Positions 2,107 through 30,128 of a DNA stretch of 33,202 bases are shown piece after piece; position 1 is the first letter of the stretch; every line of letters begins with the position of its first letter. The notes under the pieces are model-generated. The model made no database searches. It saw only the letters and a program-made list of their open reading frames with translations, and was not told where the DNA came from. A program made the translations under genes and the position numbers. The DNA is taken from NCBI GenBank assembly GCA_963727485.1, contig CAVSGM010000007.1:1-33202 (forward strand), given 5' to 3'. The stretch is from an uncultured delta proteobacterium (lineage in GTDB: Bacteria; Myxococcota; Myxococcia; SLRQ01).

Positions 2107-2774
2107 CTATGGCACACCCCGCGCGTTCTCACGCAGCGTCTCGGCCCACGCCAGCTCCCGTACATGCGCAAAACAGGTCCCCCGCCCGACCGTCTCGAAG
2201 TCCGCGCGTCGCCACACCTGCGCCACCCGCTCCCCCCACCAGTACTCCGGACAGGTCCACCACGTCCGTTGGTAGCACCGAGGCCCACAGAAGCTCGTCG
2301 TTGGGCTCGGCGACCTCGGCGGAGAAGCTCCGGTCCATCGCCTCTGCCCACCCCGCCCCGGCGTAGTACACGCCGCAGTTCACCGTGGCCCAGTAACCGG
2401 GGATGTGGATGAACTTGGGCGTGCCGTGGGCGCGGCACCAATCCCAGAATCCCGCGTCGGGCGGGCGGAGAAGGACGGTGTCCCAGTCCACCCAGAGATA
2501 CTCGCCGTAGGTCCGAAGCGCCCAGCGGCACATCCAGTGCTTCATCTTGTGGGCGGCGTCCTGGTGGATCTCGGCCGGCGCGTCGTCGAAGACCCGGGCC
2601 ACCTCCAGGCCGAAGCCCTCGAGCCGTCGCGCCGACCAGGTGTCGCCGGCGAGCACCACCGAGATCGCGCTCGTAGGTGGCGTTGGCGCGAAGACTCGCC
2701 GGGATCTCCGCCAGGGTGACCTCGGGGGCGCTCCGCACCCCACCCCGGGTGTAGGGGTAGAGGCCGGCGATCAT
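2107..2774 (-). CDS. GT-A fold glycosyltransferase-like protein (DxD); two frameshifts at ~2668 and ~2250
   Basis: ATG 2774 overlaps the upstream stop (ATGA). Reconstructed MIAGLYPYTRGG...KMKHW...YLWVDWDTVLL...VNCGVYY...PNDELL...EYWWGE...CFAHV...ARGVP*. Removing two single-base insertions gives 222 codons. Confidence 0.65.
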
Positions 2775-4089
2775 CGGAGGCGGCACAGGGCCTCCTCCCG
2801 AACGCCGTGGCCACCCCGGGCCGACTGGTCGTAGCGTTCGATCATGCCCCGCTGCATCGCCGGGTCCTGGGCGTCGAAGACGCGCCAGACTTCGGCCTCC
2901 TCCTCGGGCGGCAGGCGGTAGCCGAGCGTCTCGGCGTAGCGCCGGGCGCGGTCGAGGGTGGCGAGGGCGTACTTCCAGTTCACCAGGGGCTTGAGGAGCA
3001 GGACCTCCCGGCGCGCCACCGCCTCCCGGGCCAGGGGGTGTACCCGCGCGCGCCACCGGTCGCCGGGGAGGTGCTCCACGCCGACCGCCGAGAGGGCGAG
3101 GTCGAAGTGGCCGAGGCGGTCTCCGAGGGTACCCGGCTCCACCTTGGTCGGCACCTCGACCACCCGGCCGGCGATCTCGAAGGCGTCGCCGTAGCGTCGC
3201 GGCGCGATTTGCTGGGCACCCCGGTCGAGAAGGGTGGTCACGAGCCGCGCGCGGTCCTCGGGCGAGCCGGCCCAGAGGTCGAGATCCGCGGTGGGGCGGC
3301 CGGTGAGAAGGGTCTTGAAGGCGCCCCCGGCGTGGATGAAGCGCGCCTCGCAGTTGCTGCCGAGAGTGGCGGCCAACTCGCGACGCGCAAAGTCGATGAC
3401 GTCGCGGTCCTCGAGAGCGCAGAGGGCAGGGCGGTCCAGCGTCCGCCGTCGCGCCTGGTAGGCCGTGTGGACCCGCCCGCCGCTTCGCCAGAAGAAGGCG
3501 CCCTCCAGGTACCAGGGCCAGTCCCGCGGGCCGAGGGGCTCGCCCAGGAGCCTCGCCGCGGTGGCGGTGACCAGCGAGTCGTGGGTCACGAAGACGTGGA
3601 GCCCAGGGCGCGCGCCCGCCAGGGCCAGCATGTGGTGCACCAGGAAGCGTGCCGCGGCGTCGGCGTCGGCCATGCCGGGGAGCAGGTCGCCGCCGCCCAC
3701 CAGGTGGGCCAGCATGCCCTCGTGGCCCAACGCCTCCCAGCTCGGCCCGGCCCGGTGCCCGTCGATGACGAAGGCGCCCGGATCGCCGAGGAGCCGGTCG
3801 AGGATCACGGGGAGAGACGCGCCGGCGCCGCGGGCGAGGGCCTGCGCGGTCTGGACGCAGCGGGTAAGCGGGCTCGCGTGGAGGCTCCGGAGCCGAGCCC
3901 CCATCCGCATCCCGAGCTCGCGCGCCAGCCGCTCGCCGACCTCGGTGATGGGCAGCACGTAGCCGGCGTCCCCGGGGGGAGCGTGTCGCGGACCGAGTGG
4001 CGCAGGAGCAGCACCACGGGCTCGGAGGCGGGGACCTCGTCGAGCCACCTCAGGACGGAGGGCGGGATGCGCCAGTCGATGGCCGTCAT
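2771..4089 (-). CDS. histidine phosphatase fused to CCA/poly(A)-polymerase-like nucleotidyltransferase; one frameshift at ~3975
   Basis: ATG 4089 (ATGA overlap). LLLRHSVR, ASPLTRCVQTA and VFVTHD give the His-phosphatase core; GGAFKTLLTGRPTADLDLW...VEV...FDLALSA...RARRY give the NTase head. The frameshift lies in a C/G homopolymer run. Confidence 0.8.
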
Positions 4090-5755
4090 CTGGCCACCCC
4101 CACGATCACGGAAGGCAGGGCGGGGATCCGGCGAACCTCCTCGAGGTGGAAGCCGGCGCCCTCGAGGAGCCCGGCGTACTCCCTGGCCGTCCGCTCCCGA
4201 CCGCCGGTGGCCATGAGAAGGTGCAGGTCGCACAGCCCGCCGGCCACGCCATCCTCGGCGACGACCATCTCCACCAGGTACACCCGGCCACCGGCGGGGA
4301 GGCAGCGGCGAGCGTGGCCCAGGGGCAGCCTGGGCCCGGTCGTCGTCCCAGTCGTGGAGCACCCGGGCCATGACCACGGCGTCGGCCTGGATGTCCCACG
4401 GCGCGAAGAGGTCCGTCGCCCGTGGCGAGATGCGCTCCGCGAGCCCCGCCGACCGCGCCTGCGCGACGACCTCCGGGCGGTCGAGCAAGGTGACGCGCAG
4501 CCCCGGCCAGTTGTCCACCAGGAGCGTCGCCAGCGTCCCCAGTCCGCCCCCGGCGTCGACGACGTGCTCGTCCCCGCGCAGGCCGAGGGCCGCCGGCACC
4601 GCCGCGTAGTCGTGACGCGCGTAGCTGCGCAGCATCCGGTGGTGGGAGACGGCGCGATCGGGATCCCGCGCCACCTCGCCGAAGATGTCCGGAGCTGGCC
4701 ACGCCTCACCCTGGCGCAGGGCCTCGGGTAGCGCTGCCCACATGCGGGGGAAGTGGAGCCCGTACTCCTCGGCGGCGTCCGCCAGGGTGAAGCGGTGGTC
4801 GGCGCGCAGGTAGGCGCCCCGCGGCGTGGTGCGCCACGTCTCGCCGTCGCGGGTCACGAGCGAGAGCTCGCCCAGGGCACGGAGGAGGCGGTAGGTGCCA
4901 CGGGGATCGATCTCTCGGGCCCGCGCCACTTCGTCCACCGTGCCCGGCAGGCCCTCGAAGATTCCGAGCGACACCGCGGTGCGGATCGCCTGGGTGCGCC
5001 AGAACCCCACGAGGTCCCCGGACAGGGCGGCGAACTCGCTGCGCAGCGCCGGGCGCAGCTCGACCAGGGTCTCGCCGGCTTCGTCGACGACCTCCAGGCC
5101 GCCGTCGAAGCGCTCCACCCGCGCCTGCCCGTTGTAGAAGGGCTCCACTGCGGCGAAGCGCCGGGCGTAGGCCGGCCGGCCACGGCGGTCACAGTGCGTC
5201 CATCCCGCCTCGTCGCGGGCGCGGGCGTAGCCCTTGTGGAACACGTCGAGGTCGAGGAACCAGGAGTCGTGGAGTGGGCGTCCGTCGAGGTCGACGTGGG
5301 TCGAGCGGCCGCTCGCGTCCTGGACCACGGCGACGCCGTCGCGGAAGTCGCCGAGCGTAGCGCCAGCGCTCCGGGTAGGCCGGCAAGCCCTCGTCCGTGA
5401 GGTGCAGGTAGCGCCCGTCGGCCTGGCGCACGGCGCAGCGGCCTTCCTGGAAGTTGCCGCACCAGGCGTACCGCGCCGCCTCGAGGTCGGTGCCGTCGGG
5501 GCGGACATGATGCCAGCCGCCCGCGTCCCGCACCGCCGCGAAGCCTTCATAGAACCCGAAGGTCCGCAGGAAGCGGCGGTCGTAGGCGGGCCCTCCGTCC
5601 TCCCGGATGTGCCAGGCCTCGCCCCCGCGTCGCACGGGCGCCAGGCCCGGCGCGTGGAACTTGAGCACCTCGTCGAACCTCTCCCGGTAGAGAGGCACGC
5701 CGTCCCGCAGGTGATGAGTGCCGTCCGGGGCCACCTGGATGTTCCGCCAGCTCAT
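4086..5755 (-). CDS. WG-repeat-like protein fused to SAM-dependent O-methyltransferase (Methyltransf_2 type); frameshifts at ~5354 and ~4330
   Basis: N-terminal repeats F-[HYQR]-[EDKN]G-x-A-x-V (FYEGFAAV, FQEGRCAV, FRDGVAVV, FHKGYARA, FYNGQARV), a dimerisation HTH, VVDAGGGLG, ARVLHDWDDD and GGRERT. 556 codons after removing two insertions; TGATG overlap with the upstream gene. Confidence 0.85.
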
Positions 5756-8107
5756 CACGCCACCTCCGCGGGCTTGCGCATGTTGCACCGCAGGCACAGC
5801 GCGCGGTTCCGGTAGGTGCCGATCAGCCTCTGGTAGGCGCCGCCGTGCCAGATCTCCAGGAGCCCTTCCGCGTTCAGGTTCCCGAACTCGCCGAGGGTGC
5901 GGCGCTGGGCGTCGGGGGCGCAGCAGGGATCGAAGCGGCCCTCGGCGCTGACCCACGCCTCCTGGCCGAGGAACGGACAGGCGCCGCCGGGCGCCAGGTC
6001 GGCGGTGGCGTCGGCGTCGAGGGGGAAGATGTTCTCCAGGAGGACGGCGCGACCGTCGGGCAGGCGGCAGGTCTCGGCCGCCTCCCGGGCCTCGGCGACG
6101 GCCTGGTTCCACCTGCGGATGGCCTCGGGGCTGCGCCGCATGGACAGGCCCTCGATCTCCTCGAAGTGGGCCCAGAGGTGGTGCCCCTTCACGCGGTCCA
6201 CGCCCAGGCGCGCCGCGAGCCGGACGATGTCGGCGAGCTCGCCGACGTTGGACTCGAGGAAGGTGAGCTGGAAGGTCACGCGGCAGCGGTTGCCACCAGC
6301 GGCGGCGTGGGCGTCGCGCACGGCGATGAAGGTCTCGACGTTGGCCAGCACCGTCTCCCACCGGGCGCCGACCATGATGGCCTCCTGGGTCCGCCGGGTG
6401 GCCCCGTTCCAGGAGATCTTCACGTCGGAGGTCACCGGCACGATCCGCTCGGCCCAGGCCTTGGCGCCCAGGCGCGGGAAGGTGCCGTTGGTGGTCAGGT
6501 TGAGGTGCACGCCGTGCTCGGCGCAGAGGTCGAGGATCTCCTCGAAGTGCTCGTAGAGGAGCGGCTCGCCCATCGTCGAGGGGATGATCTCCCGGAGGCC
6601 GCGGGGCGCGGCCTCGGCGACGACCCGGCGGATGAGCTCGATGGGCATCAGCCGCCGCAGACGCCCCTCGGCCTTGCGCGCCGCCTGGAGCGGGCTGTGC
6701 GGGGAGTGCTCCTCGCACATGATGCAGTGGAGGTTGCAGGTGTCGGGGTTGGTGTCGAAGGTGATGCGCCAGGGGCCGGGGGTGGGCTCGACCCGCGTGG
6801 TGTCGCGGCGTCGGAGGACGCGCTCGTAGAGTCTTCTCCACGGCCTGGACGTGGTCCCCGATGTCGGGCACGTCGCCCGCCTCGTCGAAGAGGTAACCGC
6901 GCTCACCGAGGCGCCGGGCGAGTGCCGGGTCGTCGACGAGACGCTGCAGCTGCGTCGCCAGCGAGCGATGGGAACGGAAGTCGAAGCAGCAGTCCGTTGA
7001 CCTCGTGCTGCACGTACTCAGCCATACCGCCGACGTCGGCGGTGATGACGGGCACCCGCGCCTGCTGGGCCTCGTGGATCACCAGCGGCGAGTTCTCCAC
7101 CCACACCGAGGGGACCACGATGGCATCGACCCGGTCGAAGACGGAGCGCACGATGTCCTGGTTGCGGTACTCGGGGAGCCACTCCACGCGGGTGCCCGCG
7201 TCGCCCGGGAGCTCGCGCGCCAGGGCCTCGAGGGCCTCGGTGTCCTGGCCGCGAGCGCGGCCCCAGATCCGGAGCCGCGGCGCGCCCTGGAGCTGGCCGA
7301 AGGCGCGGAGGAGGTCTTGGATGCCCTTGGCCGGGGTGTGGGTGCCGATGTAGCCGAAGGTGAAGGGCTCCCGGCGACCGCGATCTCGTCCCCGCAGGCG
7401 CGCGCGGTCGAACCCGTAGTCGAGGTGCACCAGCTTGGCCTCGGGGATCCCGAAGGCGTCCCGGTGCCGGTCGTGGAGGTAGCGCGCCGGGGCCACGAAG
7501 ACGTCCACGAGCTCCGCCACCTCGCGCAGGTGGCGCATCCGCTCGCCGACCCAGCCGGACCAGTGGGCGCGGTCGGCCTCGCGCGCCTCGGGGTCACCGC
7601 TGAAGTAGCGCGCGTAGCAGCGCTCGGCGCACTTGCCGTCCTCCTGTCCGTCGCAGCTCGCCCAGAGGTTGTCCCGGTCCTCGGGGAACATCTGCATGAA
7701 CTGGCCGCGCGGGCACATGACCCAGTAGTCGTGCAGCGTGTAGACGATGGGGATGTCGCGTTTCGCCGCTTCCATCACCAGGGAGGTGCTGAGAGGTGGT
7801 TGAGGTGCTGGACGTGGACCACGTCCGGTCGCACCCGGTCGAGGACCTCGGCGAAGCGCCGGTCGATCCCCGGCTCCCGATAGCGGTCCTTGTTCCGTGG
7901 GTTGTTCACCAGGTGGAGGGTGACGCGCGGGTCGTCGGGGTCGCGCTCCTCGCGCAGCGCGAAGTCCGGCGCGAAGGCGTTCTCCTCGCGGGTGAAGACG
8001 TGGACCTGGTGGCGCTCGGCGAGCGCGTGGCAGAGGGTCTGGGTGTAGACCTCGGACCCGGCGTTGTAGCGGCGTGGGTAGCCGTGGATGACCTGCAGGA
8101 CGATCAT
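5755..8107 (-). CDS. GT4 (GT-B) glycosyltransferase fused to radical SAM enzyme with twitch/SPASM domain; frameshifts at ~7792, ~6986, ~6833
   Basis: GT4 motifs HGYP..YNAGSE, PDVVHVQHL, TLHDYW, KG, PSVWVENSPLVIHEA and GGMAE. The linker has no separate start. Radical SAM motifs CNLHCIMC, STMGEPLL and TTNG, then C-x17-CC...CxxC. 783 codons after removing 4 nt. Confidence 0.85.
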
Positions 8108-8228: not shown

Positions 8229-8447
8229 CTACTCGGACTTGTCCGAGGAATCCGCCGCCATCGGGGGCTGCGGGGTTACCGGCGTCCCATGCGAGGCGTC
8301 GGTGCCCGTCAGCGGCCGATGCGAGGCCGCGAGCTCCGCGGCCGTCGGCTCAGGCAGCCCCCGCGACCGGTAGTACGCGGGATGCTCCGGATTGAGCTGG
8401 TTCGCACGGTTGTCCCGTGCGGGCTCGGGGATGGCATGCTTCGCCAT
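8229..8447 (-). CDS. 72-aa small protein with DNRANQLNP...YYRSRG motif (candidate precursor or substrate peptide)
   Basis: GGAGGAGA RBS before ATG 8447. MAKHAIPEPARDNRANQLNPEHPAYYRSRGLPEP... with a low-complexity P/A/S/T tail; first gene of the operon. Confidence 0.75.
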   Translation of the reverse strand: MAKHAIPEPARDNRANQLNPEHPAYYRSRGLPEPTAAELAASHRPLTGTDASHGTPVTPQPPMAADSSDKSE

Positions 8448-8560
8448 GTCTCCTCCGGACTTTTGGCCAGCGTGACCTTCAGCGACCTTGCGGCCCGCCC
8501 GGAGACAGGGCGCGCGCACACTCCAGTGCACACGGATCAGTCATTGCTGGCGGGTCGATC

Positions 8561-8574
8561 TGGAGAACTCTCCA
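8561..8574. promoter_or_regulatory. palindrome TGGAGA-AC-TCTCCA, possible operator in the divergent intergenic region
   Basis: Perfect 6-bp inverted repeat about 115 bp upstream of the peptide gene. Confidence 0.25.
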
Positions 8575-9026
8575 CCACGGATACGGTCAAGCAGGCGATG
8601 CCTGATCGTCCCGACCCAACGGACGTCAAGATGCGTATCCAGCGGTACGAACAGCGTAGTCACTGCCGCTCACTGTTGTCAATGAGACAGAATGGCCCAG
8701 GTTGGGGTAATTGTCACCGCGTTCTGATCCCGATATGGGAATATGGCGAACACTCGTCGCACGCTGAAGTGGTATGGGAAAGGCTATGCCAAGGCCGGAG
8801 GTACCGTGTACCGACGGGAGAGGTTGGCACTCAGCCGAGCCAGAATCGGGACATGGAGGACCGCGATGGCAGGGCGATGCAAGACGCAGGTGAACGGAAA
8901 GGCCGCACGAGGCCGAAAAAGGTGCCAAGCTTTGCCTCGCAGCCCATTGTCTGTTCCCCGAACCTGTTCACCAACCTGCAGCGGATGGTTCAAGCGCAAG
9001 TCGATTGACCGGACCGGAGGTGGCGA

Positions 9027-9452
9027 ATGCTAATGTCTGAGGAAGCCGAGGTGATCGCCAAGGAGATCGACACGAGATTGGGTCGCCACGTATGGAGCGC
9101 TCGGCAGGTTCTCCTCGGCCTCCGCGCGGGGTTCCGTTGCGAGTACTGCGATCTCGACCTGCTGGGCAGCCCAGAGGCGTACAAGCAATGGACGGAGGAT
9201 CACATCGTTCCGAAGTTCAAGTATCTGGACGGTGATCCGAACGAGTTCGCCAACCTCGCGCTGGCCTGTCGGCCCTGCAACATCAACTTCAAGAGTAGGT
9301 GGGATCCCAGCAGGGGCGGCAAGATCCAGGGGCGCGGAGCTCGGATTGCCGAGTGCCGCAGGTACGTGGCGGAGATGCGCGGCAAGGCCATGCAGGAGCT
9401 CCTCGAGTTCAGGTCCATGTTCGAGGTGATCCCGAAGAGAGAGCGCGAGTAG
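9027..9452 (+). CDS. HNH endonuclease (zinc-binding, McrA-like)
   Basis: CEYC...EDHIVP...NLALACRPCN motif; GGAGGTGG RBS. Confidence 0.9.
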   Translation: MLMSEEAEVIAKEIDTRLGRHVWSARQVLLGLRAGFRCEYCDLDLLGSPEAYKQWTEDHIVPKFKYLDGDPNEFANLALACRPCNINFKSRWDPSRGGKIQGRGARIAECRRYVAEMRGKAMQELLEFRSMFEVIPKRERE

Positions 9453-9689
9453 TCGGGGGGGGGAGTCTGTACCACGTGGAGTGCAGCCTCGCCTCGGGTC
9501 TTGTGCCCCTGTGAGCGGAGTGCCCGGCGACGGTCGGTCCCAATGGGCCCGCCAAGTTCCTGCTGTCGTCGTATCGTGCCGGACGCAGACGCCGAGCGGG
9601 GGATTGTGCTGCTGCGCCCAAACTGTGTGGCGAGGGGCTGCGATCCCTCATGGAGACAAAGTGGTATGGCAACCAGAGGAGATGAAGAA

Positions 9690-10346
9690 ATGAAAAAGCA
9701 GCTACTGGAGGCCTGTGAGGGACTCGTTCGCAGCAAGGAATGGCAAGACCAACTGGCTGCGAACGTGTACTGGGCTTCGTGCGAGGGCTTTCTTCAGTCG
9801 ACGCTGCTATGGGCATTCAACAGCTTTCCGGGAACTCACAAGGTGGACGGCGACCGCTATCTGGCAGACCGTGAGCGCTACCTTGTTTGGGGTGAGAGGC
9901 GCATCGCTCCGGACCTGGTGTTCTTCGGGGAGGGTGACGAGAAAAGGTGGTGGGACTATCGCGATGCTCGCGATCGCGAGAACCTTCGGAGTCTTGCTGC
10001 CGGACTGGTAGAGGTGAAGATGGCTTGGCTGCCTGGCTCAGCGACGGGGAGCGCAACACTCGGGTCCAAAGCCGTCTCGATCCAGACCGACGTGGATAAT
10101 CTCCGCTACCTGCTGGAGCACAAGGTCGGAAGGTCCGCCTGGGTCGTCTGGTGTGTGGCTGGCTTTCCTGGGAAGGACCACGGTCGCGCGGTTGAAGAGA
10201 GCGTCGAGTTCCTAAGGTCGCAAGTGAAGGGGGTGCGGCCGGTGAAGCACTGGAGCCTATTTGCGGGCTCTGGTGGTCTGTGGGGGGGCGCCGATCAGGA
10301 TTCTCCGAAGGGAAGCCTGGTGCTTTCGGAAGTGACTGGGGCCTGA
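9690..10346 (+). CDS. PD-(D/E)XK nuclease-fold protein
   Basis: AGAGGAGA RBS before ATG 9690; helix E(GFLQ), then PDLVFF, VEVK and a following I..D...L helix. Confidence 0.7.
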   Translation: MKKQLLEACEGLVRSKEWQDQLAANVYWASCEGFLQSTLLWAFNSFPGTHKVDGDRYLADRERYLVWGERRIAPDLVFFGEGDEKRWWDYRDARDRENLRSLAAGLVEVKMAWLPGSATGSATLGSKAVSIQTDVDNLRYLLEHKVGRSAWVVWCVAGFPGKDHGRAVEESVEFLRSQVKGVRPVKHWSLFAGSGGLWGGADQDSPKGSLVLSEVTGA

Positions 10347-10464
10347 AGACCTGGTCGGCCCGATTGGCGAGTCCTACGGGCGGGGAGTCGGGCTGCTGCC
10401 ATCCTGGCTTGTTCGCAGCGATGAGGTTGTACGTTGGGTGGGTGTCGCTGACGCAGGATCTGGA

Positions 10465-12564
10465 TCAGTGACAGAAGCCGACGGGGGAGGACCGGTTCCG
10501 GAGTCCGGAAGCCTCCCCCCTAGGCGCTGCAGCACCTCCCCAACCCCCACCGTCTCCCCCAGCACCCGCACCCGGCGCGCCACCACCGCCACGTCCCCGG
10601 CGGTCACCCCCTCGAGCCGTCGCATCGCCCGGGTCACCGCCCCGCGCTCCGCCGCCGTCAGCGCCCGCCCCAGCACCTCGCCCACCAGAACCGCGAGCCC
10701 CGCCGCATCCAGCGGCCGCAGCTCCACCTTGAACAGCAACCGGCGCAGCGCCGCCGGGTCGACCTCGTCCCACAGGTTCGTGGTACACGCGACCACGCCG
10801 CTATTCGCCTCGAGCTGCTGCAGCACCTCGTCCACGAACGAGAGCTCCCAAGTGTGCGTCGCGCCGCGGCGGTCGCGCAGGAGCGCGTCGACCTCGTCGA
10901 GGAGCAGCACCGCCCCGGTGGACTCGGCCTCGTGGAACGCCGCGGCGATGGCCTGCTCGGTCTCCCCCACGAAGCTCCCCAGCAGGTCCGAGCCCCGCCG
11001 CGCCACCACCGGCCGGCCCATGCGCCACGCCAGGTAGCGGACGTAGGCGCTCTTGCCCGTCCCCGTTGGGCCGTAGAGGCACAGCGACACGCCCCCGGTC
11101 TCCGGGGTCCAGTCCGCGAGGTGGTTCGCGAGGGACGCCAGGTCCTCGGAGGCGCGCACTACCTCCAGCTTGTGGGCCGCGGGGTCGAAGGTCACCGGGG
11201 CGCGCGCCGGCTTGCCGGTCACCAGGGCCACCGAGGGCGCGAGCACCTGCTCCAGGTTCTCGCGCGACACCTCGTCGTGCTCCGAGACCAGCCGCGCCGC
11301 CGACACCGCCGAGGCAAGCTGTGCTGGGGCCGCGTCGTAGCGGGTCGCAATGGCCTCGACGTCCAGCTCGGTCAGCCCACCGCGCCCCTCGCCGAGGTGC
11401 CGGCGAAGCACCCCCTGCCGCTCCCGGGCGCCCAGCGACGGAAAGCGGATCACGAACCCGAAGCGCCGGAGGAACGCCGGGTCCACGCCGTCGGCGTCGT
11501 TGGAGATCCAGATGGTGGGCACCGGGTTGCCCTCGAGCACGGCGTTGAACCACTGCTTGGACATCAGCGCCGACGACCCGGGGAAGAGGCTCTGGGCGAA
11601 GACGTCCTCGAACTCGTCGAAGAGGAGCAGCGCCGGCGTCCGCGCGAGCAGCTGGTGGCCGAGCTGGAGCGACGAGAGCCGCTCGCTCGTCGACGGGGTG
11701 GACCCACTGCGGTCGGAGAGGCCGGCGACGTAGAGGGGCACCTCGAGGCGCCGGGCCAGGAGGCGCGCCAGCTCGGTCTTGCCGCTGCCGGTGGGACCCA
11801 CCAGGAGCACGTTGACCCCGGACCGCCGGGTCTCGAGGGCCCGTCCCAGCAAGCGCTCGGACAGCGCGACCTCGTCGGCGAGCCGGCCGAAGTCGGCCAC
11901 ATCCAGGGTCGGCGGGGGCGCCGGATCGAGGTAGTGGCGCAGCAGCCGATCGGTGTCGAGCCCGGGCATGCGCACCAGGTCCGAGAGCCCCTCCTTGATC
12001 TCGATGTTCGCGTCTCGCCAGTCGGTCTCGATCCGGCGCGCCAGCCCCCCGGCGACCAGCGGCGCCCTGCCGTGCGTGACGGCCAGCACCTGGGTCAGGG
12101 GCAGTGCCAGCGCGTCGGCGATGGCCTCGGGCCCCTGGGGCTCATGGCTGCGCAACGAGGCGAGAAAGTCCCGAAGGAGCCGGCTGGTGCGCAGGGCCAC
12201 CAGATAGGTGAGCACCTGCCGGTCCACGGTGCCGAGGTCGGCGATTCGCGTAAGGGTCCGGAGGCTGGTGCGCACGGGCTCGTCGGGCTCGGGCACCGGG
12301 ACCGGGTGCGTGATCCGGGTGCGCAGGTGCCGTCGGACCCGCTGCATGGCGTTCGCCGGATCCGGCGCGGCGCGCGTTCCCCCGACGAGGGCCCGGAACA
12401 CGGGCGACTCGTCGAGCAGCTCCGCCTCCATGGCGTCGATGTCGTTGGGCCCCACGACGAGCAGGAGGTTGTGCGCCCAGGCGAGGACGCACGGCCGGAA
12501 CGGGTCGTTCGCGAGGGCCGGGGGCAGGGGGCTGCGCGCCGGGGATTCGGGACCGGGGGCTCAT
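10465..12564 (-). CDS. tandem AAA+ ATPase (two AAA modules, SpoVK/Cdc48-like); frameshifts at ~12535 and ~10515
   Basis: GPTGSGKT/LLLFDEFE/DPAFLRRF and GPTGTGKS/LLLDEVD/TTN/DPAALRRL. The true C-terminus ...SPVGFCH* lies in another frame after a C homopolymer. The coding-like frame continues upstream of 12455 (ALANDPFRPCVLAW). Confidence 0.85.
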
Positions 12565-13398: not shown

Positions 13399-14694
13399 AT
13401 GCCTCGCCTCCTCTTCGTCGGTGACATCCACCTGGGCCGCCGGCCCACCAGGCTCCCGGACGAGCTCGCCGGCCTGCGCCCCGCGGAACTGGGCCCGGCG
13501 GCGGCGTGGAGCGCCACCGTGGCGCACGCCCTGGCCGAGCGGGTCGACGCGGTGGTCCTCGCCGGCGACGTGGTCGAGTCCCTCGGCGACCGGTTCGAGG
13601 CCTATGGGCACCTCCAGGGCGGCGTCGCGCGACTGACCGAAGCGGGCATTCCGGTCATCGGGGTGGCGGGCGACCACGACGTCCTGGCGCTGCCCCATCT
13701 CGCCGAGCAGGTGCCCGGCTTCCAGCTCCTGGGCGCCGGCGGGATCTGGGCGCACACCGACGTGACGAGCGCCGACGGGGGCGCGGTGCGCCTGCTGGGC
13801 TGGTCGTTCCCCGCGGAGCGGCACCGGCGCGATCCGCTGGATGGGCTCCAGGTGCCCGCCAGCTGAGGGCGTCGCCGTCCTCGGGGTCCTCCACTGTGAT
13901 CTCGACGGGCCGCCGACGAGCCCCTACGCCCCGGTGCGCCGGGCCGACCTCGAGCGCCAGTCGGTCGACGCCTGGCTCCTCGGGCACGTGCATCGCCCGA
14001 GCGATCTGTCGGGCGACCGGCCCCTCGGGTACCTGGGGTCCCTCTCGGCCCTCGACCCCGGCGAGCCCGGTGCCCACGGGCCGTGGAGGGTCGAGGTCGA
14101 GGGTCCCGGGCGCGTCCGGGCGACGCAGGTGCCGCTGGCGCCCATGCGCTACGAGCAGCGCGCGCTCGACGTCTCCGAGGTCGGCGCCGATGGCGCCCTG
14201 GCCCCCGAGGCCGCCCTGGAGCGTGCGGTCCTCGCCACGCTCGCCGAGGTCGCCGCCGAGTGCGACGCCGAGGACGCGCAGGCGAAGCTCGTCGCCTGCC
14301 GCCTCACGCTCAAGGGGCGAACGGCGCACCACGCCGAGTTCGCCCGAGCCGTCGACGAGGGCCTCGCGGCGCTCTCCCAGAGCCACGGCGCCCGGCGGGT
14401 CTACGTGGAGAAGATCGTCGACGAGGCGGCGGCGGCCCTCGACCTCGAGGCCCTCGCCCGGGGATCGAGCCCCCCGAGCTCCTCGCCAGGCGCCTGGTCG
14501 CCCTGGAGGCCGGGGGCGACGCCGCGGCCGACCTCTTGCGCCAGGCCCGCGAGCGCCTCCAGGCCACCGCCTCCCAGCCCGCCTTCGCCGACCTCGACGC
14601 CACGCCCCTCGACGACGACGCCCTCCGCCGCCACCTCCTCCGCGCCGGGCGCGAGGCCCTCGAGCGCCTCCTCGCCCAGAAGGAGGACCGGTGA
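13399..14694 (+). CDS. yhaO: Mre11/SbcD-like metallophosphoesterase DNA repair exonuclease (YhaO type); frameshifts at ~13860 and ~14478
   Basis: GDIHLG, AGDVVE, GDHD, LH, LGHVH and YLGS...E.GAHG motifs; GTGA overlap with the SMC-like gene. Confidence 0.85.
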
Positions 14695-17600
14695 AGCTCA
14701 AGGGCCTCGCCGTGCGCCGGCTCCACGACCTCGGGGCCTTCGAGGTCGACGACCTCGCCCCGGGGCTGAACCTCCTGGTCGGGCCCAATGGCTCGGGGAA
14801 GACCTCGGTGATGAACGCCGCGCGCGCGGTGCTCTGGGGCACCCCCAAGCTGCCCCACGCCGACCTGGTCACCGTGTGGGACGACGGGCGGGAAACCTGG
14901 CGCGCCGTCCTCGTCGGCGGGGCGGCCGGGTGGCAGCGTGGGGGCGCCGACGTGCCGCCGCCCGAGGTGCCCGACGCCGCCCTCGCGGCGAGCTGGGTGG
15001 TGGGCCTGCGCGAGCTGCTCACCGGCGGCGACACCGAGGACGCCCTCCTCGACCGGGTGCGGCGGCAGATGGCCGGGGGCTACAATCTCGCGGGGCTCCT
15101 GGACGAGTACGCGGGCAAGCGCTGGCCCGGGCGGGCGGAGCAGAAGACGCTCCGGGAGAAGCGCGACGCCCTGCGGGCCATCGAGGGCCGGCGGGCGGAG
15201 CTGGCCCGGAGCGAGGACGGGCTGGCGGACCTGCGCGAGCAGCGCCTCGAGGCCCTCGCGGCGAGGGACGAGGCAGAGCGCCTGGGGCAGGCCCTGGAGC
15301 GCGCGCGGGTGGCCGCCGAGCTCGCCGCCGCCGAGCAGCGCCTCACCGACTTCGAGGCCGGGGTGTCGGTGGCCACCGCCGACGCCCGGGATCGCCTCCG
15401 AGAGTGGGACGAGGCCCTCGCCGAGGCCCGGCGCGCCGCCGACGCCGCCCGCCACGATCTCGACCGGGCCGCCGAGGCCGCCGGCGCCGCGGGGATCGAC
15501 GAGCCGGTGGAGAGCGGAGACCTCGCCGCCGCCCGGGAGCACGCCCGGGAGGTGGGCGAGCGCGCCCGGGACGCCGCCGAGGCCCGGCGCGCCGCCGACG
15601 CCGCCCGTGCGGAGGCCCAAGCCGCGCGGCGGGCGCTGGCGCCCGACCTGGCGCCGGACGCCGACGGGCCCGCTCCCGAGCTGGACGCGGTGCAGGCCTG
15701 GGCCGAGGAGGTCCTCCGGGCCCGGGCGGCGGTGGACGAGGTGGAGGCCCGCCTCGCAATCGTGGTCTCGGAGCTCGAGGGGCTCGGCCCCGTCCCCGAC
15801 GCCGCCGAGGCCGATGCCCTCGGGCGCGCCGCGGCGCTCCTCGAGGGGGCGTCGGCGGCTGGCGCCGGCGCGCGATGGCCCGGGTGGCTGCTGGGGCTCG
15901 GTGGCGCCCTCATGGTGGCCGGCGTGGTGCTGGCGGTGCTCGCGACCCCCTGGCTCCTGGCCCTCGCGGGTCTCGGCGCCGGGCTGCTCCTCGGGCCCCT
16001 CCTCGGCGGGCGTGGCGGCGGCGGCGTGGCGGCGGCGCAGGCGGCGTGGCCCGCGGGCGTCGAGCGGCCGGCCGCCTGGGATCCCGAGAGCGTGGACGCG
16101 GCCCGTCGCCGGGTACGGGCGCGGCGGGACGCGGCCGACCAGGCCCGCCTCCTCGAGGACGCCCGCCGGCGCCTCGCCCAGGCGCGTGACCGGCACCAGG
16201 CCGAGCTCGAGGCCCTCGCCGCCCGACGCGACGACCTCCTCGCGGGCGTCGCCCTCGACCCGCTTCCAGGCGACCTGCGCCTCGCCAATCTCCTCCGGCG
16301 TCTCTCCGACTGGCGCGCCGCGGCCGGGGTGGCGGCGGCGCGGGAGGCCGAGGCCGCCGACGCTGGCGCCCACCTCGATCGGGCCACCTCGGACCTGCGT
16401 GCCGCCCTCGACCGCCTCGGCGCCGGTGACGTCCCGGTCGGCGAGGCGCTGGCCCGGCTCGACGTCCTCGACGACCAGAGCCAGGCCCTCCGCGCCGCCC
16501 GCCGGGACCAGGCCGACGCCCGCCGGCGCCTCGACGAGCAGGCGGACCGCGTCACCCACCTGGAAGAACGGATCCAGGACCTCCTCCACGCCGCCGGCCT
16601 CGGCGACCTGGGCGCCGACGCCGCCCGGGCGCGCTTCGACGAGCTCGCACAGCAGCGCCCGGCGTGGGAGGCCGCGCACGAGGAGGCCCGGCGCCTCGCC
16701 CACCGGGCCGGCGAGCTCGAGGCCGCCCTCGCCGATCACCCCGGGCTCCTCGAGCTCGACCGCCCGGCCCTCGAGGCCCGACGGGCCGATGCCGAGGCCA
16801 GTGCCGGGCGCCTCGAGCCGCTGGTCGCCGAGATCTCGCGCACCGAGGCGGCCCTCGAGGACGAGCGGGCTTCCCAGGCCTACGAAGAGGCCCTCGCCGA
16901 GGTCACCGCCGCCGAGCAGCAGCTCGCCGACGTCCGCGAGCAGGCCCTCCACGACGCCGCCGCGCGCCTGCTCCTCGAGGACGTCCAGGCCACCCACGCC
17001 GAGCAGCAGCTCCCGGCGGTGTTCCAGCGGGCGCGGGCGCTGTTCACCCGCTTCACCCGGGGGCGCTACGACCTCACCCTCGACGGGGTGGGGACCGGTC
17101 GCCTGGCCCTGCGCGCGGTGGACACCGCAGCCCCCGGGGGCGCCGGGCTGGCGCTCGAGGCCCTCTCCGACGGCACCCGGATGCAGCTGCTCCTGGCCAC
17201 CCGGGTGGCCTTCGCCACCGGCGAGGAGCAGGGCCGGCCCCTGCCGCTCTTCCTCGACGAGTCCCTCACCGCCACCGACCCGGTGCGCTTCGGGGCGGTG
17301 GCCGACGCGGTCCTGGCGCTGGCCGAGGACGGCCGGCAGGTCTTCTACCTCACCTCGGATCCCGCCGACGTGGCGCGGTGGCAGCAGGCGTGCGCGCGGC
17401 GGGGCGTCGCGGCGCCGCGGGTGGTGGACCTTGCCCAGGCGCGCCAGGTCGAAGGGGCCCTCGATCCCGAGGACCTCGTCCTGCCCCCGGCGCCCGAGGT
17501 CCCGGCCCCGGACGGCCTCGACGCCGCCGAGTACGGCCGCCGGCTGGGCGTGCCGCAGTTCGACCCCTTCGAGGGCGGGGACTCGGTGCACCTCTACTTC

Positions 17601-18149
17601 CTCCTCCAGGACGACCTGCCGCTCCTGCGGCGCCTGCTCCAGGAGGCGCAGGTCAACCGCCTCGGACCCCTGCGCCGGGTGCTCGCCCTCGACGGCACCG
17701 GGCTCCTCGCCGACGACGAGCGGGCGCGGGTCGAGGCCCTCGGGCGGGTGGCCCGGGCCTTCGCCGACGCCTGGCAGGTGGGGCGGGGGAGGCCGGTGGA
17801 TCAGGCGGCCCTCGAGGCCAGCGGGGCGGTGAGCGACGCCTTCATCGACCGGGTCACCGAGGTGGCCGAAGAGCTCGGTGGGCGCGCCGCCGACCTCGTC
17901 GCCGCCTTCGAGGCCCCCGGCAGCGAGCGCGACGAGCGTCTCAAGGGCTTCCGCACCAGCGCCCTGGAGAAGCTGGAGGCCTACCTCCGCGAGGCGGGCT
18001 ACCTCGACCCCAGCCCCCGCCTCACCGAGGCCGAGATCCTCGCCCGCTGTCGCGACGCCGTCGCCGAGGCCCTCGACGGTGGCGTCCTCGACACGGCGGA
18101 CGTCGCCCGGACCGTCCGCGCCCTGGAGGCGGCGACCGGGGCGCGGTGA
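14691..18149 (+). CDS. yhaN: SMC/SbcC-like coiled-coil ATPase with central transmembrane hairpin (YhaN/AAA_27 type), 1152 aa
   Basis: AGGAGG RBS before GTG. Walker A GPNGSGKTS, long Ala/Arg/Glu coiled coils, a hydrophobic hairpin mid-protein, signature LSDGTR, Walker B LFLDES, and a C-terminal extension. Confidence 0.85.
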   Translation: MKLKGLAVRRLHDLGAFEVDDLAPGLNLLVGPNGSGKTSVMNAARAVLWGTPKLPHADLVTVWDDGRETWRAVLVGGAAGWQRGGADVPPPEVPDAALAASWVVGLRELLTGGDTEDALLDRVRRQMAGGYNLAGLLDEYAGKRWPGRAEQKTLREKRDALRAIEGRRAELARSEDGLADLREQRLEALAARDEAERLGQALERARVAAELAAAEQRLTDFEAGVSVATADARDRLREWDEALAEARRAADAARHDLDRAAEAAGAAGIDEPVESGDLAAAREHAREVGERARDAAEARRAADAARAEAQAARRALAPDLAPDADGPAPELDAVQAWAEEVLRARAAVDEVEARLAIVVSELEGLGPVPDAAEADALGRAAALLEGASAAGAGARWPGWLLGLGGALMVAGVVLAVLATPWLLALAGLGAGLLLGPLLGGRGGGGVAAAQAAWPAGVERPAAWDPESVDAARRRVRARRDAADQARLLEDARRRLAQARDRHQAELEALAARRDDLLAGVALDPLPGDLRLANLLRRLSDWRAAAGVAAAREAEAADAGAHLDRATSDLRAALDRLGAGDVPVGEALARLDVLDDQSQALRAARRDQADARRRLDEQADRVTHLEERIQDLLHAAGLGDLGADAARARFDELAQQRPAWEAAHEEARRLAHRAGELEAALADHPGLLELDRPALEARRADAEASAGRLEPLVAEISRTEAALEDERASQAYEEALAEVTAAEQQLADVREQALHDAAARLLLEDVQATHAEQQLPAVFQRARALFTRFTRGRYDLTLDGVGTGRLALRAVDTAAPGGAGLALEALSDGTRMQLLLATRVAFATGEEQGRPLPLFLDESLTATDPVRFGAVADAVLALAEDGRQVFYLTSDPADVARWQQACARRGVAAPRVVDLAQARQVEGALDPEDLVLPPAPEVPAPDGLDAAEYGRRLGVPQFDPFEGGDSVHLYFLLQDDLPLLRRLLQEAQVNRLGPLRRVLALDGTGLLADDERARVEALGRVARAFADAWQVGRGRPVDQAALEASGAVSDAFIDRVTEVAEELGGRAADLVAAFEAPGSERDERLKGFRTSALEKLEAYLREAGYLDPSPRLTEAEILARCRDAVAEALDGGVLDTADVARTVRALEAATGAR

Positions 18150-24503: not shown

Positions 24504-24658
24504 GGTGTCCCGATCGTCCCCCAGCGGTCGCGGGGGTTCAACCCGGCAGCCGAGGTGGCCGCTGCTGCAGGTGAAGCAGCCCCGTGGTAGTATCACCCTA
24601 CGTGGTCGCCAATGGGGCGCCACCCGTGCTCTTCGGCTGCCGCTGGGCCAGGCACGAG

Positions 24659-27397
24659 ATGAAACCGTCCGCGGCCATCGGAGGTAGGGTGCGCAGGTTG
24701 AAGTGGTGCATGACGTGCGCGGCCGCGATCGTCGTGGCCGCCTGCGCGCCGCCGGCTGGGAAGGCGACCCTGAAGGGCCGCGTGGTCCTCCCGGGCGTCG
24801 CCGACGCCTCGGGGATCCCGGTGGCCATCACCGGGACCACCTCGGTCACGGTCCTCACCGACGCCGGCGGTGCCTGGCGCGCCGGCCACCTCCGAGCCGG
24901 TCACTACGCCGTCACCGCCGCAGTCCCCTCGACCCTGGAGGGCACCGAGGTCACGGCGGCCACCGTCCCCGGGACCGGGACCGCCACCGCGCCCACCCTC
25001 ACCTTCGCGCCGGTGGGTACCCTCTCGGGCACCGTGACCGTCGCCGGCGGCGACCCGGCGCCGGCCGGGACCCTGGTGGTCGCCGCGGGCACCGCCGCCG
25101 AGGCCGCCACCGGTACCGATGGCCACTACACCCTCCGGGACGTGCCCGTGGGTCCCGTGACCGTGTTGGCCTCCGACCCCGCCGCCGGTCGCGGGGCCGC
25201 CCCGGACGTCACCGTGGCCTGGAACGCCGCGGCGACGGTCCCCGACCTCGCGCTCGTGCCCGCGCCCCCGGGGCAGGGCGGCATCACCGGCACCGCCGTC
25301 CTCACCGGTCTCGCCGACAGCAGCCAGGTGGCCGTGACCCTCGCCGGACCCGTCGACGCGGCCACCCACCCGGACGCTGCCGGGGACTTCAGCTTCACCG
25401 GCCTCCCCGACGGCGCCTACACCCTCACCGCCGCCGCGGACGCCACCCGCGAGGGGACGGTCTCGGTGCCCGTCACCGTCGCCGGGCCGGCCACCCCGGC
25501 GCCGCCCCTGGCCCTCACCCCCGTGGGCACCGTCTCCGGCGAGGTGAGCCTCGGCGGCGCCACCGCCGGCAACGCGGGCATCACCGTCCTGGTCACCGGG
25601 CCCACCGGGGAGGCCGTGAGCTTCACCGACGACGCGGGGCACTACACCGTCGCCGACGCCCCGGTCGGCGCCGTGACCGTCGAGGCCGCCTTCCCCGGCT
25701 ATGGCGTCGCCACCACCGTCGCCCTCCCGGTGACCTGGGACACCACCGCCCCGGCGCCCGCCCTCCGCCTCGAGCCCGCGGGCAGCGCCACCGGGAGCCT
25801 CGCCACCGTCCAGGGGGTCGCCACCCCGGCGGGCGTCGCCGACGCGTCGGGCCTGACCGTGCGGCTCCTCGACGACACCGGCGCCTCCATCGCCACCGCC
25901 ACCACCGACGCCGCCGGCGCCTACACCCTCCCCGGCGTGCCCCCGGGCCTCTACACAGCAACCTTCGATCGGGGCGCCTACCACGAGACCGTGCCGGCGC
26001 TCCTGGCCATGCCCGGGACCGACGGGTTCGTGGTCGACGGCGGGATCCTGCCCCTCGCGCCCCTCGAGGTGCCCCGGGCCCGGCGGCTCGTGGCCGCGCC
26101 CAGCACCGCCCCCGTGGCGATCACCCCCGACGGCGGTGAGGCCGTGGTCGCCCGCGAGCTGGGTGGCGCGGGCACCTGCGTCCTCGACACCGTCGACGTC
26201 GCCACCGGTCAGGTCCGCGAGGTCCCGGCACCCTCCTGCTCGGCCAACCTCCAGGTCTCCGACGACGGCACCCTGGCCTACGCCGGGGGGAACGCCAGCA
26301 CCTCCGACCCGGCGCCCATCTACGCCACGCCCGTCGCCGGTGGCCCCTCGGTGAGACTCCTGGACCGGCCGCTCAACGGGGCCTTCCAGGTGCTCCCGGA
26401 CGGACGTCACCTGGTGGTGGCGACGCAGCCCTCGAACGGGCTCCCCTACCAGGTCGTGCTCGCCGCCGCCGACGGGTCGCCGCCGGAGGTGCTCCTCGCG
26501 GCCTCGCCTTGGTACACGGCCATCTCGATCGTGCAGCTCTCGCCGGACGGCAGCCAGCTCCTCGTCGACTCCTCGGGGCTGAAGGTCATCACCCTCGCCA
26601 CCGGTGCCGTGACGGACCTGGGTGCCGGCGGCAGCGATCCCCGCTTCCTCCCCGGCGGGGTGAAGGTGCTCTACGCCACGTCCGATCCGCAGTCCTCCTA
26701 CGGCGTGGTCGACCTCCAGGTGGTCCCGGCGTCCGGCGGCACCCCTCGGCTCCTGGCGAGCCAGGTGTCCCAGCACACGGCGACGCCAACCCCGGACGGC
26801 AGCCGCGTCCTCTACCAGGACGCCTCGGGCGGCACTCCCGGCCCCATCGACTCGGTGCCCGTGGACGGGAGCGCGGCGCCCGTGACCCTGGCGGCGTCGG
26901 CGGCCATCCAGGCGGTCTCTCCCGACGGAAGCCGGGTCGTCCTCACCCGGTTCCCCGACCGCGAGCTGGTGAGCGTCCCCGTCGCCGGCGGCGCCGTCGC
27001 GGACCTCGGCGGGCAGGATGCCCAGCGCGTCGCGTTCTCCCCTGACGGTACGAGGGTCGCCTGGACCCAGTCCTGCGATGCCAACAAGGCCTGCGACCTC
27101 GAGGTCGCGCCCATCGCCGGCGGCCCGCCCACGCGCATCGCCACCGGGGCCTTCCAGCTCGGCGCCCTCGTCTTCTCGCCGGACGGCAGCGCGGTCTTCT
27201 ACCTCACCGTGCGAAGCTTCGGCAACGTTCACCACGGCACCCTGATGCGGGCCGCCACGTCCGGTGGGCCACCGGTGGAGGTCATCCCCGACGCCTGGGA
27301 CCTCCGGCGGGTCGGGGATCATGTCTTCGCCAGGTGGATCCAGGGCACCGCGCCCTATCGCTTCCAGGAGGGGCTCCATGCGCTCTCGCTTCCCTAG
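24659..27397 (+). CDS. lipoprotein with carboxypeptidase-regulatory-like beta-sandwich repeats and TolB-like beta-propeller (paralog 1; start uncertain, 24659-24710)
   Basis: Lipobox VVAAC; repeated DASG..V.L.G...TD..G.Y....P.G.Y units; repeated SPDG/TPDG blades. Confidence 0.85.
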   Translation: MKPSAAIGGRVRRLKWCMTCAAAIVVAACAPPAGKATLKGRVVLPGVADASGIPVAITGTTSVTVLTDAGGAWRAGHLRAGHYAVTAAVPSTLEGTEVTAATVPGTGTATAPTLTFAPVGTLSGTVTVAGGDPAPAGTLVVAAGTAAEAATGTDGHYTLRDVPVGPVTVLASDPAAGRGAAPDVTVAWNAAATVPDLALVPAPPGQGGITGTAVLTGLADSSQVAVTLAGPVDAATHPDAAGDFSFTGLPDGAYTLTAAADATREGTVSVPVTVAGPATPAPPLALTPVGTVSGEVSLGGATAGNAGITVLVTGPTGEAVSFTDDAGHYTVADAPVGAVTVEAAFPGYGVATTVALPVTWDTTAPAPALRLEPAGSATGSLATVQGVATPAGVADASGLTVRLLDDTGASIATATTDAAGAYTLPGVPPGLYTATFDRGAYHETVPALLAMPGTDGFVVDGGILPLAPLEVPRARRLVAAPSTAPVAITPDGGEAVVARELGGAGTCVLDTVDVATGQVREVPAPSCSANLQVSDDGTLAYAGGNASTSDPAPIYATPVAGGPSVRLLDRPLNGAFQVLPDGRHLVVATQPSNGLPYQVVLAAADGSPPEVLLAASPWYTAISIVQLSPDGSQLLVDSSGLKVITLATGAVTDLGAGGSDPRFLPGGVKVLYATSDPQSSYGVVDLQVVPASGGTPRLLASQVSQHTATPTPDGSRVLYQDASGGTPGPIDSVPVDGSAAPVTLAASAAIQAVSPDGSRVVLTRFPDRELVSVPVAGGAVADLGGQDAQRVAFSPDGTRVAWTQSCDANKACDLEVAPIAGGPPTRIATGAFQLGALVFSPDGSAVFYLTVRSFGNVHHGTLMRAATSGGPPVEVIPDAWDLRRVGDHVFARWIQGTAPYRFQEGLHALSLP

Positions 27398-30125: not shown

Positions 30126-30128
30126 GCG

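Follow-up and report, generated by a model that had tools for sequence, protein, structure and literature searches.

The window analysed here is a stretch of 33,202 nucleotides from an uncultured delta proteobacterium (contig CAVSGM010000007.1), and its minus strand carries a gene in which a histidine phosphatase is fused to a second domain that automated annotation passes over. We found that this second domain is predicted to be a class II nucleotidyltransferase (NT) related to CCA-adding enzymes and bacterial poly(A) polymerase (PAP) but reduced to head and neck, and that phosphatase and NT together form a conserved two-domain protein. The gene belongs to a patchily distributed cassette whose core resembles that of the Undecim Cluster in Wolbachia prophage WO. 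This core has been described before but not explained, and the uncharacterised class II NT module that it carries here is real and new. As to its function, the conserved active sites and the neighbouring genes give something close to an even chance to phosphate removal and transfer of a nucleoside monophosphate (NMP) on a sugar-type intermediate.

The fusion gene starts at the ATG at position 4089, which overlaps the upstream stop codon (ATGA), and encodes a 439-aa chain. Its N-terminal half is the histidine phosphatase domain (RH...R...HD; 3431..4089, minus strand), followed by the NT domain of about 219 aa (2771..3430, minus strand), whose frame terminates at the stop at 2771-2773. In this assembly a one-base frameshift near 3968, downstream of the RH motif, splits the chain; read across it, the window protein shares 314 of 438 residues with an intact 439-aa homologue. 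A preliminary description of the sequence had quoted class II NTase motifs for this region, including a third acid in VEV and FDLALSA in place of RRDFTINA, and all of them were present in the frame (GGAFK from 3328, DLD at 3286-3278, the VEV glutamate at 3157 and FDLALSA from 3106). Its expectation that annotation would miss the NT also proved right: a Pfam scan of the open reading frame (ORF) returned His_Phos_1 only (PF00300, 30.8 bits, cut-off 21.7), and the last 219 residues had no match in Pfam, NCBIfam or PADLOC scans. A protein search with the window fusion yielded 627 relatives among 7,996 scored candidates. Among the 120 relatives listed, most were 437-460 aa long, and those with names were labelled only phosphatase or hypothetical. 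Where both domains occurred, they formed a single ORF in 68 of 76 loci. The view of phosphatase and NT as one chain fits most loci that have both domains; in the window itself the frameshift breaks the ORF in this assembly, and the fusion is not obligatory.

To compare the NT domain with PolyA_pol and CCA enzymes, as the preliminary description had proposed, we used sequence, profile and structure searches. The best PDB match in phmmer was the B. stearothermophilus CCA enzyme 1miv (E 0.0077). An AlphaFold2 model of the domain reached a predicted local distance difference test score (pLDDT) of 96.7, and Foldseek with this model returned class II CCA-adding, A-adding and PAP chains as its leading rows (best E 5.2e-8). 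When the model was aligned with 48,161 chains by VIA-align, the top seven were all class II, the best being 4wby (Z 13.5, root-mean-square deviation (rmsd) 3.7, 204 residues aligned). A PDB profile search with a longer query was dominated by the phosphatase part. The structural match was confined to head and neck: the model covers residues up to about 220-270 of bacterial chains of 372-425 residues, and there the protein ends. These results indicate that the domain probably adopts the class II fold of the Pol-beta superfamily.

We then examined which motifs of this fold are conserved, using 151 domain pieces (144 representatives) and counting only the rows that cover each column. Motif A, hG(G/S)x(9-13)Dh(D/E), and the third carboxylate were present, with G35, G36, D49, D51 and E/D92 kept in 93-99% of covering rows. 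Individual columns gave G35 99/100, K39 90/100, D49 96/103, D51 101/103, E/D92 100/104, D110 105/106, T/S158 105/107 and R161 108/108, and the metal- and triphosphate-binding positions stayed 90-100% conserved down to about 25% identity. The two points on which the assignment had been made to hang, a pol-beta NTase fold and conservation of the DLD acids, therefore both came out in its favour. In a profile alignment with the Aquifex A-adding enzyme, GGAFK took the place of GGVVR, DLD that of DVD, and the third acid was aligned, while RFD stood for RRD, YALAT for EDPVR and RxxRY for RxxRF. Motif B does not read RRD: its middle position was F in 92 of 106 rows and never R, its D being kept in 105. 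The neck helix that bears EDxxR in CCA enzymes is retained, and its RxxRF half survives as RxxRY, but motif D is replaced by Y/F-A/L-x-x-T/S, with T or S at the arginine position (105/107). The flexible loop between motifs A and B is deleted, leaving a 12-residue gap against the Aquifex enzyme, and body and tail are absent. The profile and structure alignments thus confirmed that templating motif and tail are missing, as had been noted from the sequence.

Set beside the solved class II tRNA nucleotidyltransferases and bacterial PAP (4wby, 3h37, 1miv, 3aql), the NT shares the head and neck fold, GG...DxD, the third carboxylate, the motif B aspartate and RxxRF/Y, and differs in having xFD for RRD and YAxxT for EDxxR, in lacking loop, body and tail, in its size of about 220 aa, and in being encoded by a patchy accessory gene. 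According to the available text of PMC2910056 and PMC2532741, RRD recognises the ribose, EDxxR selects the base and the loop serves the switch from C to A. Judged by these roles, the NT appears to have kept the positions for metal and triphosphate chemistry and lost everything specific to tRNA, and it is probably enzymatically active. Two canonical PolyA_pol-family genes lie elsewhere in the host genome, and we rejected the idea that the window gene replaces a housekeeping CCA enzyme or PAP.

The phosphatase belongs to branch 1 of the histidine phosphatases (PF00300), as its residues and Pfam score both indicate. It has the same catalytic residues as that branch, and R-H, R and H-D were invariant in 16 of 16 aligned domains. 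It has no close solved relative; its best PDB matches were broad-specificity phosphatases over the N-terminal third (E 3e-9), and such matches do not predict its substrate. A second phosphatase of the same type, 35% identical, was found elsewhere in the host genome (contig C2:1367714-1368354), with no NT match there.

Directly downstream of the fusion lies a gene resembling a GT-A fold glycosyltransferase (2107..2786, minus strand; DWD motif; frameshifts about 2657 and 2248). The end of the NT frame and the start of this gene share 16 nt, an overlap that most relatives also have. Sequence searches of this gene against PDB and Pfam gave nothing significant. Its model (pLDDT 94.9) was closest to glycogenin, Skp1 galactosyltransferase and LARGE1 (Z 12.5-12.9), with glycogenin at Z 12.9, rmsd 4.1 and 198 residues aligned, and many GT-A families close behind. 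The DWD motif was invariant in 57 of 57 sequences; the gene is predicted to have a GT-A fold with DxD but could be assigned to no single CAZy family.

Upstream, the window cassette comprises a WG-repeat–O-methyltransferase fusion (4086..5755, minus strand; frameshifts about 5353 and 4323), a GT4 glycosyltransferase–radical SAM/SPASM fusion (5755..8107, minus strand; frameshifts about 7794, 6977 and 6832) and, at its head, a small protein of about 72 aa with one NRANQLNP-x-HPAY repeat (8229..8447, minus strand). In relatives an SDR epimerase gene comes next after the small protein, and it is absent here. A survey of 21 genome loci and 74 metagenome loci, retrieved with NT-containing queries, showed that the order of the genes hardly varies: small repeat protein, SDR epimerase, GT4–radical SAM/SPASM, WG–O-methyltransferase, phosphatase–NT and sometimes GT-A. 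The hosts included Myxococcota, Planctomycetota, Gammaproteobacteria (with Zoogloea and Ramlibacter), Latescibacterota and one cyanobacterium, a patchy spread over several phyla. In two Latescibacterota loci (L011:1676-4624 and L013:3568-5286), genes for an RraA-like aldolase and a Gfo/Idh oxidoreductase lie upstream and replace the SDR gene.

The two large fusions resemble UC3 and UC4 of the Undecim Cluster (WD0611-WD0621), as that cluster is presented in the available text of PMC9203015. Over 99% of its length, a relative's GT4–radical SAM protein matched its WO counterpart at 52% identity; for SDR and WG the figures were 42% and 47%, and the order is shared. Tested with the intact proteins of locus L006 (59-76% identical to the window genes by segment), the UC3 and UC4 core genes were found in order, and the window has homologues of these two only among UC1-UC11. 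After UC4 the systems diverge: the cassette has phosphatase–NT and GT-A, whereas Undecim has a PhyH dioxygenase, an ABC transporter and aldolases. Neither NT nor GT-A was matched in the WO, Rickettsia and Arsenophonus stretches, and on the two plasmids among them a PhyH dioxygenase is annotated at the position of the NT. In the portions available, PMC9203015 and 10.1101/2025.04.16.649125 assign no function to the Undecim Cluster.

Considering these neighbours together with the two active sites, we favour, tentatively, a role of phosphatase–NT as an optional tailoring step on a small sugar- or nucleoside-type product of the GT4–radical SAM cassette. The phosphatase would strip a phosphate from a pathway intermediate, and the NT would bind a nucleoside triphosphate (NTP) and two metals through GG-x-x-K, DxD, E, D and RxxR and transfer one NMP to a small acceptor. 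A small acceptor rather than RNA is suggested because the ribose-reading arginine, the base template, the loop and the domains that hold tRNA are gone. At the third of loci with a coupled GT-A, the nucleotidylated product may serve as GT-A donor or acceptor. Since both active sites are conserved and the domains so often share one ORF, a step of dephosphorylation and then nucleotidylation appears reasonable. WG repeats and the small peptide aside, the stable neighbours are sugar-nucleotide or small-molecule tailoring enzymes (SDR epimerase, GT4, radical SAM/SPASM, O-methyltransferase and GT-A), and so, for the most part, are the enzymes that take the NT's slot at other loci. Two cassettes without NT, L127 and Wolbachia WO, have in its stead a sugar-1-phosphate nucleotidyltransferase of the classical kind together with a UDP-glucose dehydrogenase. 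The one-way link of GT-A to the NT, the non-basic NT domains, the scarcity of tRNA genes and the absence of a conserved ligase, all described below, also speak for this reading, as do the two ordinary PolyA_pol-family genes elsewhere in the host. The L127 variant (L127:1106-7616) combines these two genes with two O-methyltransferases, a phosphatase–PhyH fusion and a formyltransferase. Phosphatase plus nucleotidyltransferase is also the usual logic of ADP-heptose and CMP-Kdo or CMP-sialic acid activation, where HldE/GmhB, KdsC/KdsB and CMP-sialic acid synthetase place the two activities ahead of a glycosyltransferase, as in the cassette. Those pathways use HAD phosphatases and HIGH or GT-A-like transferases, whereas the NT has a predicted pol-beta class II fold. 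In a bolder form, which we regard as doubtful, a CCA core would have been repurposed as a sugar-nucleotide synthase: the phosphatase would unmask and the NT activate an unusual radical-SAM-modified sugar, and the orphan glycogenin-like GT-A would transfer it.

Several observations weigh against small-molecule tailoring. The closest solved folds to the NT are all RNA-end enzymes, the small-molecule enzymes ANT(2'') and LnuA reached Z of only 5.9 and 5.0, and synthesis of a sugar nucleotide is not known to us for any enzyme of the class II fold. Most NT-less cassettes had no substitute sugar nucleotidyltransferase within the fetched stretch. The coupling of the genes is not required either: of 77 distinct NT loci, 60 had the phosphatase and 9 lacked it, 24 had GT-A and 45 lacked it, and for each of the two genes 8 loci could not be scored. 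The same NT was also fused to a zeta/PNK-like kinase in 20 of 44 scanned relatives, one of them with a DSP phosphatase as well, an arrangement that fits RNA end healing equally well. Finally, 14 of the 22 core-bearing Myxococcota genomes had no NT match.

This last figure comes from 401 Myxococcota genomes, in which the WG core was found in 22, the NT in 8 (all within the 22) and a GT-A match in 3. Four of the 8 NTs follow WG, with the phosphatase absent. The 14 NT-less loci, some of which stop at a contig edge, hold a phosphatase alone, phosphatase–radical SAM, phosphatase–PhyH, nothing, or (in three) a CBASS-like cyclase and a patatin; elsewhere, too, the slot after WG–O-methyltransferase is taken by a PhyH dioxygenase, phosphatase–PhyH, phosphatase–radical SAM or phosphatase alone. 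In a genome of the same family (L114:61-1845), the phosphatase is fused to a second radical SAM/SPASM domain in the NT's place. Among 401 genomes of the class of genome G401, WG matched in 9 and NT in 2 of these, one being the query's own genome. After this search anchored on the WG domain we rejected the NT as a universal member of the core: the fusion is an optional module.

The preliminary description had asked whether NT and GT-A are gained and lost together. They are not; the link runs one way, with intact GT-A seen only at NT loci, in 24 of the 69 distinct ones that could be scored. Across 124 loci, all 27 with GT-A have an NT directly upstream, and 23 share the identical 16-nt overlap seen in the window, while none of 21 NT-less loci retrieved with a WG query had GT-A. 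Most loci in this count had been retrieved through the NT, and related loci are not independent of one another. A GT-A match without NT in genome G269 was considered as a lone working GT-A and rejected, being a 5'-truncated relic with two stops. In a Hormoscilla cyanobacterium (L018:9998-11310), NT and GT-A form an isolated two-gene unit from which core and phosphatase are absent.

The freedom with which the parts combine bears on a further reading, that the NT is a catalytically idle appendage, or that the two domains act on unrelated substrates and their fusion is incidental. Phosphatase and NT are each found without the other, and NT partners vary freely (WG, kinase, methyltransferase or none). 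However, the conservation of the metal and triphosphate positions speaks against an idle domain, and relative P0229 carries the same phosphatase type fused again to the NT in the opposite order, which makes this reading highly improbable. In a quick tree of 95 rows spanning the NT domain, with shorter fragments left out, P0229 fell among the kinase-fused NTs (support 98), a lead that the phosphatase–NT pairing arose twice.

The likeness to RNA-end enzymes raises another alternative, in which the phosphatase would clear a 3' phosphate and the NT would extend tRNA or other RNA with untemplated nucleotides, either to repair it or as toxic tailing of the MenT kind. Over head and neck the best structural matches are indeed CCA-adding and A-adding enzymes and PAP, and kinase, NT and phosphatase are joined in one chain in P0204 and P0229. 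According to the available text of PMC2532741 and PMC2910056, E. coli PAP deprived of its template arginine makes random tails and CC-adding enzymes are naturally loop-less, and that of PMC7824862 describes NTases and phosphoesterases used for RNA repair in jumbo phages. Nevertheless, flank clustering revealed no conserved RNA ligase or other non-cassette neighbour, and tRNA genes occurred in only 2 of 31 loci, so the healing-and-tailing branch of the preliminary description gained no contextual support. The RRD arginine has given way to Phe in most rows, body and tail are absent, the NT domains are not basic (median isoelectric point 6.2 in 66 domains), and every operon partner whose enzyme fold can be recognised is an enzyme of sugars or small molecules. 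We consider an RNA substrate unlikely.

We next placed the NT among its relatives. It is neither a CCA enzyme nor a PAP but an uncharacterised member of a broad stripped clade near phage Gad2. The Atlas put the domain beside Gad2 and phage PolyA_pol-head clusters: Gad2 was carried by 11% of members in the nearest cluster and 61% in the second, and PolyA_pol by 64% in the second. Together with BFVD models, these clusters showed the likeness to Gad2 (PF26128) and to small phage and giant-virus NTases. A precomputed Gad2 label was carried by one of the 120 listed homologues (P0024), and PHROG 1614 'nucleotidyltransferase' matched 27 of 40 members. Pandoravirus cluster 7 likewise has xFD, has lost EDxxR and has kept the arginine pair, as far as the text of 10.1101/2023.12.02.569716 was available. 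Nine phage records matched the NT at 26-30% identity only, 13 pattern matches in viral contigs yielded none confirmed as a relative, and a plasmid collection gave no NT match. Distant NTs stand alone or are fused to WG repeats, a methyltransferase or a kinase. The kinase-fused forms (P0154, P0181, P0203, P0204, P0212, P0229 and others) in some cases also carry PhyH, 2-oxoglutarate oxygenase, DSP phosphatase, ankyrin or PQ-loop domains. A cluster look-up of ten distant relatives returned no names or taxa.

Gad2 is a phage NT that blocks the Gabija defence, by a mechanism given as unknown in the available text of 10.1101/2023.05.01.538930 and PMC13728456. As the nearest profile family, it suggests that the NT might nucleotidylate a protein, be it the small repeat protein, an enzyme of the host or a protein of a phage, with the phosphatase and the glycogenin-like GT-A sharing the target. 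The enzymes nearest the GT-A model (glycogenin, Skp1 galactosyltransferase and LARGE1) would fit such a role, as would the small protein with its repeated Tyr/His/Ser motifs at the head of many cassettes, and WG repeats are fused directly to the NT in P0127 and P0175. On the other hand, cassettes that lack an NT (L114, L117-L119 and L125) begin with the small protein as well, and the similar GT-A Z-scores across many GT-A families do not tell one acceptor type from another. Gad2 is a phage-borne protein of about 400 aa, whereas the window NT is a cellular domain of 219 aa, fused to a phosphatase in an operon of sugar enzymes, and the phage matches to the NT are distant. Protein modification is, in our assessment, quite unlikely. 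The small protein, in which the NRANQLNP-x-HPAY-xx-SRG repeat occurs once or twice, stands first in the cassette in the window and at about 25 loci, with or without NT. It had no family, Atlas or literature match (best Atlas score 0.83, at low recognition), and it may be a precursor peptide, or a substrate on which the radical SAM core acts.

Defence genes near some cassettes point to yet another role, in which the NT would make a short or modified nucleotide as an immune signal or antiviral agent and the cassette would be a chemical anti-phage system. At three Myxococcaceae loci (L122:5148-6921, L123:4962-6807 and L125:5682-7464), a CBASS-like cyclase and a patatin lie right behind WG–O-methyltransferase, overlapping its end, in the NT slot. 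The cyclase was recognised by PADLOC in L122 (E 1.6e-24) and L125 (E 3.1e-27), and in L123 by sequence likeness only. At L040:2499-4450, a viperin–kinase fusion (pVip, E 1.6e-62) and a 127-aa ORF stand directly upstream of the SDR gene on the same strand, in a cassette with phosphatase–NT and GT-A. Flanking proteins with a PADLOC match at E<=1e-60 numbered 9 of 110 (4 generic kinases and 5 non-generic) against 1 of 107 controls (a kinase; 0 non-generic), all controls coming from one genome, and the patchy spread of the cassette is in keeping with such a role. Yet mobile cassettes settle among defence genes whatever their function, flank clustering showed no conserved effector or receptor gene beside the NT, and the NT did not qualify as a CBASS/CD-NTase, as P0002, P0004, P0133 and P0142 gave no PADLOC match at E<=0.1. 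The Undecim core is moreover reported, in the available text of PMC9203015, to be highly expressed in an endosymbiont. Support for a defence or signalling role of the cassette is modest, and a signal-synthesising NT seems improbable.

In this assembly the window copy of the cassette is disturbed. Its four enzyme genes contain eight frameshifts but no in-frame stops over about 6 kb, whereas 36 genes (40 kb) on other contigs had no frameshifts against the proteins of a relative. This control used 140 of 262 candidate proteins, none on this contig; most other window genes keep frame. Errors of long-read consensus typically appear as single-base insertions without stops. Because six of the eight frameshifts are single-base insertions and stops are lacking, the pattern leans towards a locally poor long-read consensus. 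The best match to the missing SDR in the host genome was no closer than 31%, and loss of this gene fits operon decay. Just upstream of the cassette, the region 8500-10350 has a lower GC content (61-65%) and holds an HNH endonuclease gene (9027-9452). Beyond it lie an AAA ATPase gene (10374-12455) and an SMC-like ORF (13506-18149), and at 24584-33155 the plus strand carries three tandem large genes (about 940-1010 aa) of carboxypeptidase-regulatory/SdrD-like repeats.

In a literature search that excluded supplements and most subscription journals, we found no description of a phosphatase–NT fusion or an NT–GT-A pair. Although the significance of the finding is limited by the optional nature of the fusion and the frameshifts of the window copy, it concerns class II CCA-fold enzymes, which are known for action on RNA ends. 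The stripped clade of Gad2, phage and giant-virus proteins and the NT family, which has no biochemically defined substrate in the portions of literature available, gains a concrete context from the cassette. The cassette core is common to the Undecim Cluster, a highly expressed Wolbachia island, and because several cultured bacteria (Polyangium jinanense, Ramlibacter alkalitolerans, Myxococcus vastator, Ectothiorhodospira shaposhnikovii and Haliangium ochraceum) have relatives that carry the fusion, the pathway can be tested outside the endosymbiont. The cassette product may be an envelope glycan, a secreted metabolite or an antiviral compound. If the NT did act as a sugar-nucleotide synthase, sugar activation would gain a fold not seen in it before, and the chemistry of the Undecim core would become more accessible; since CBASS and viperin genes lie within or next to some cassettes, the pathway might even be a chemical anti-phage one.

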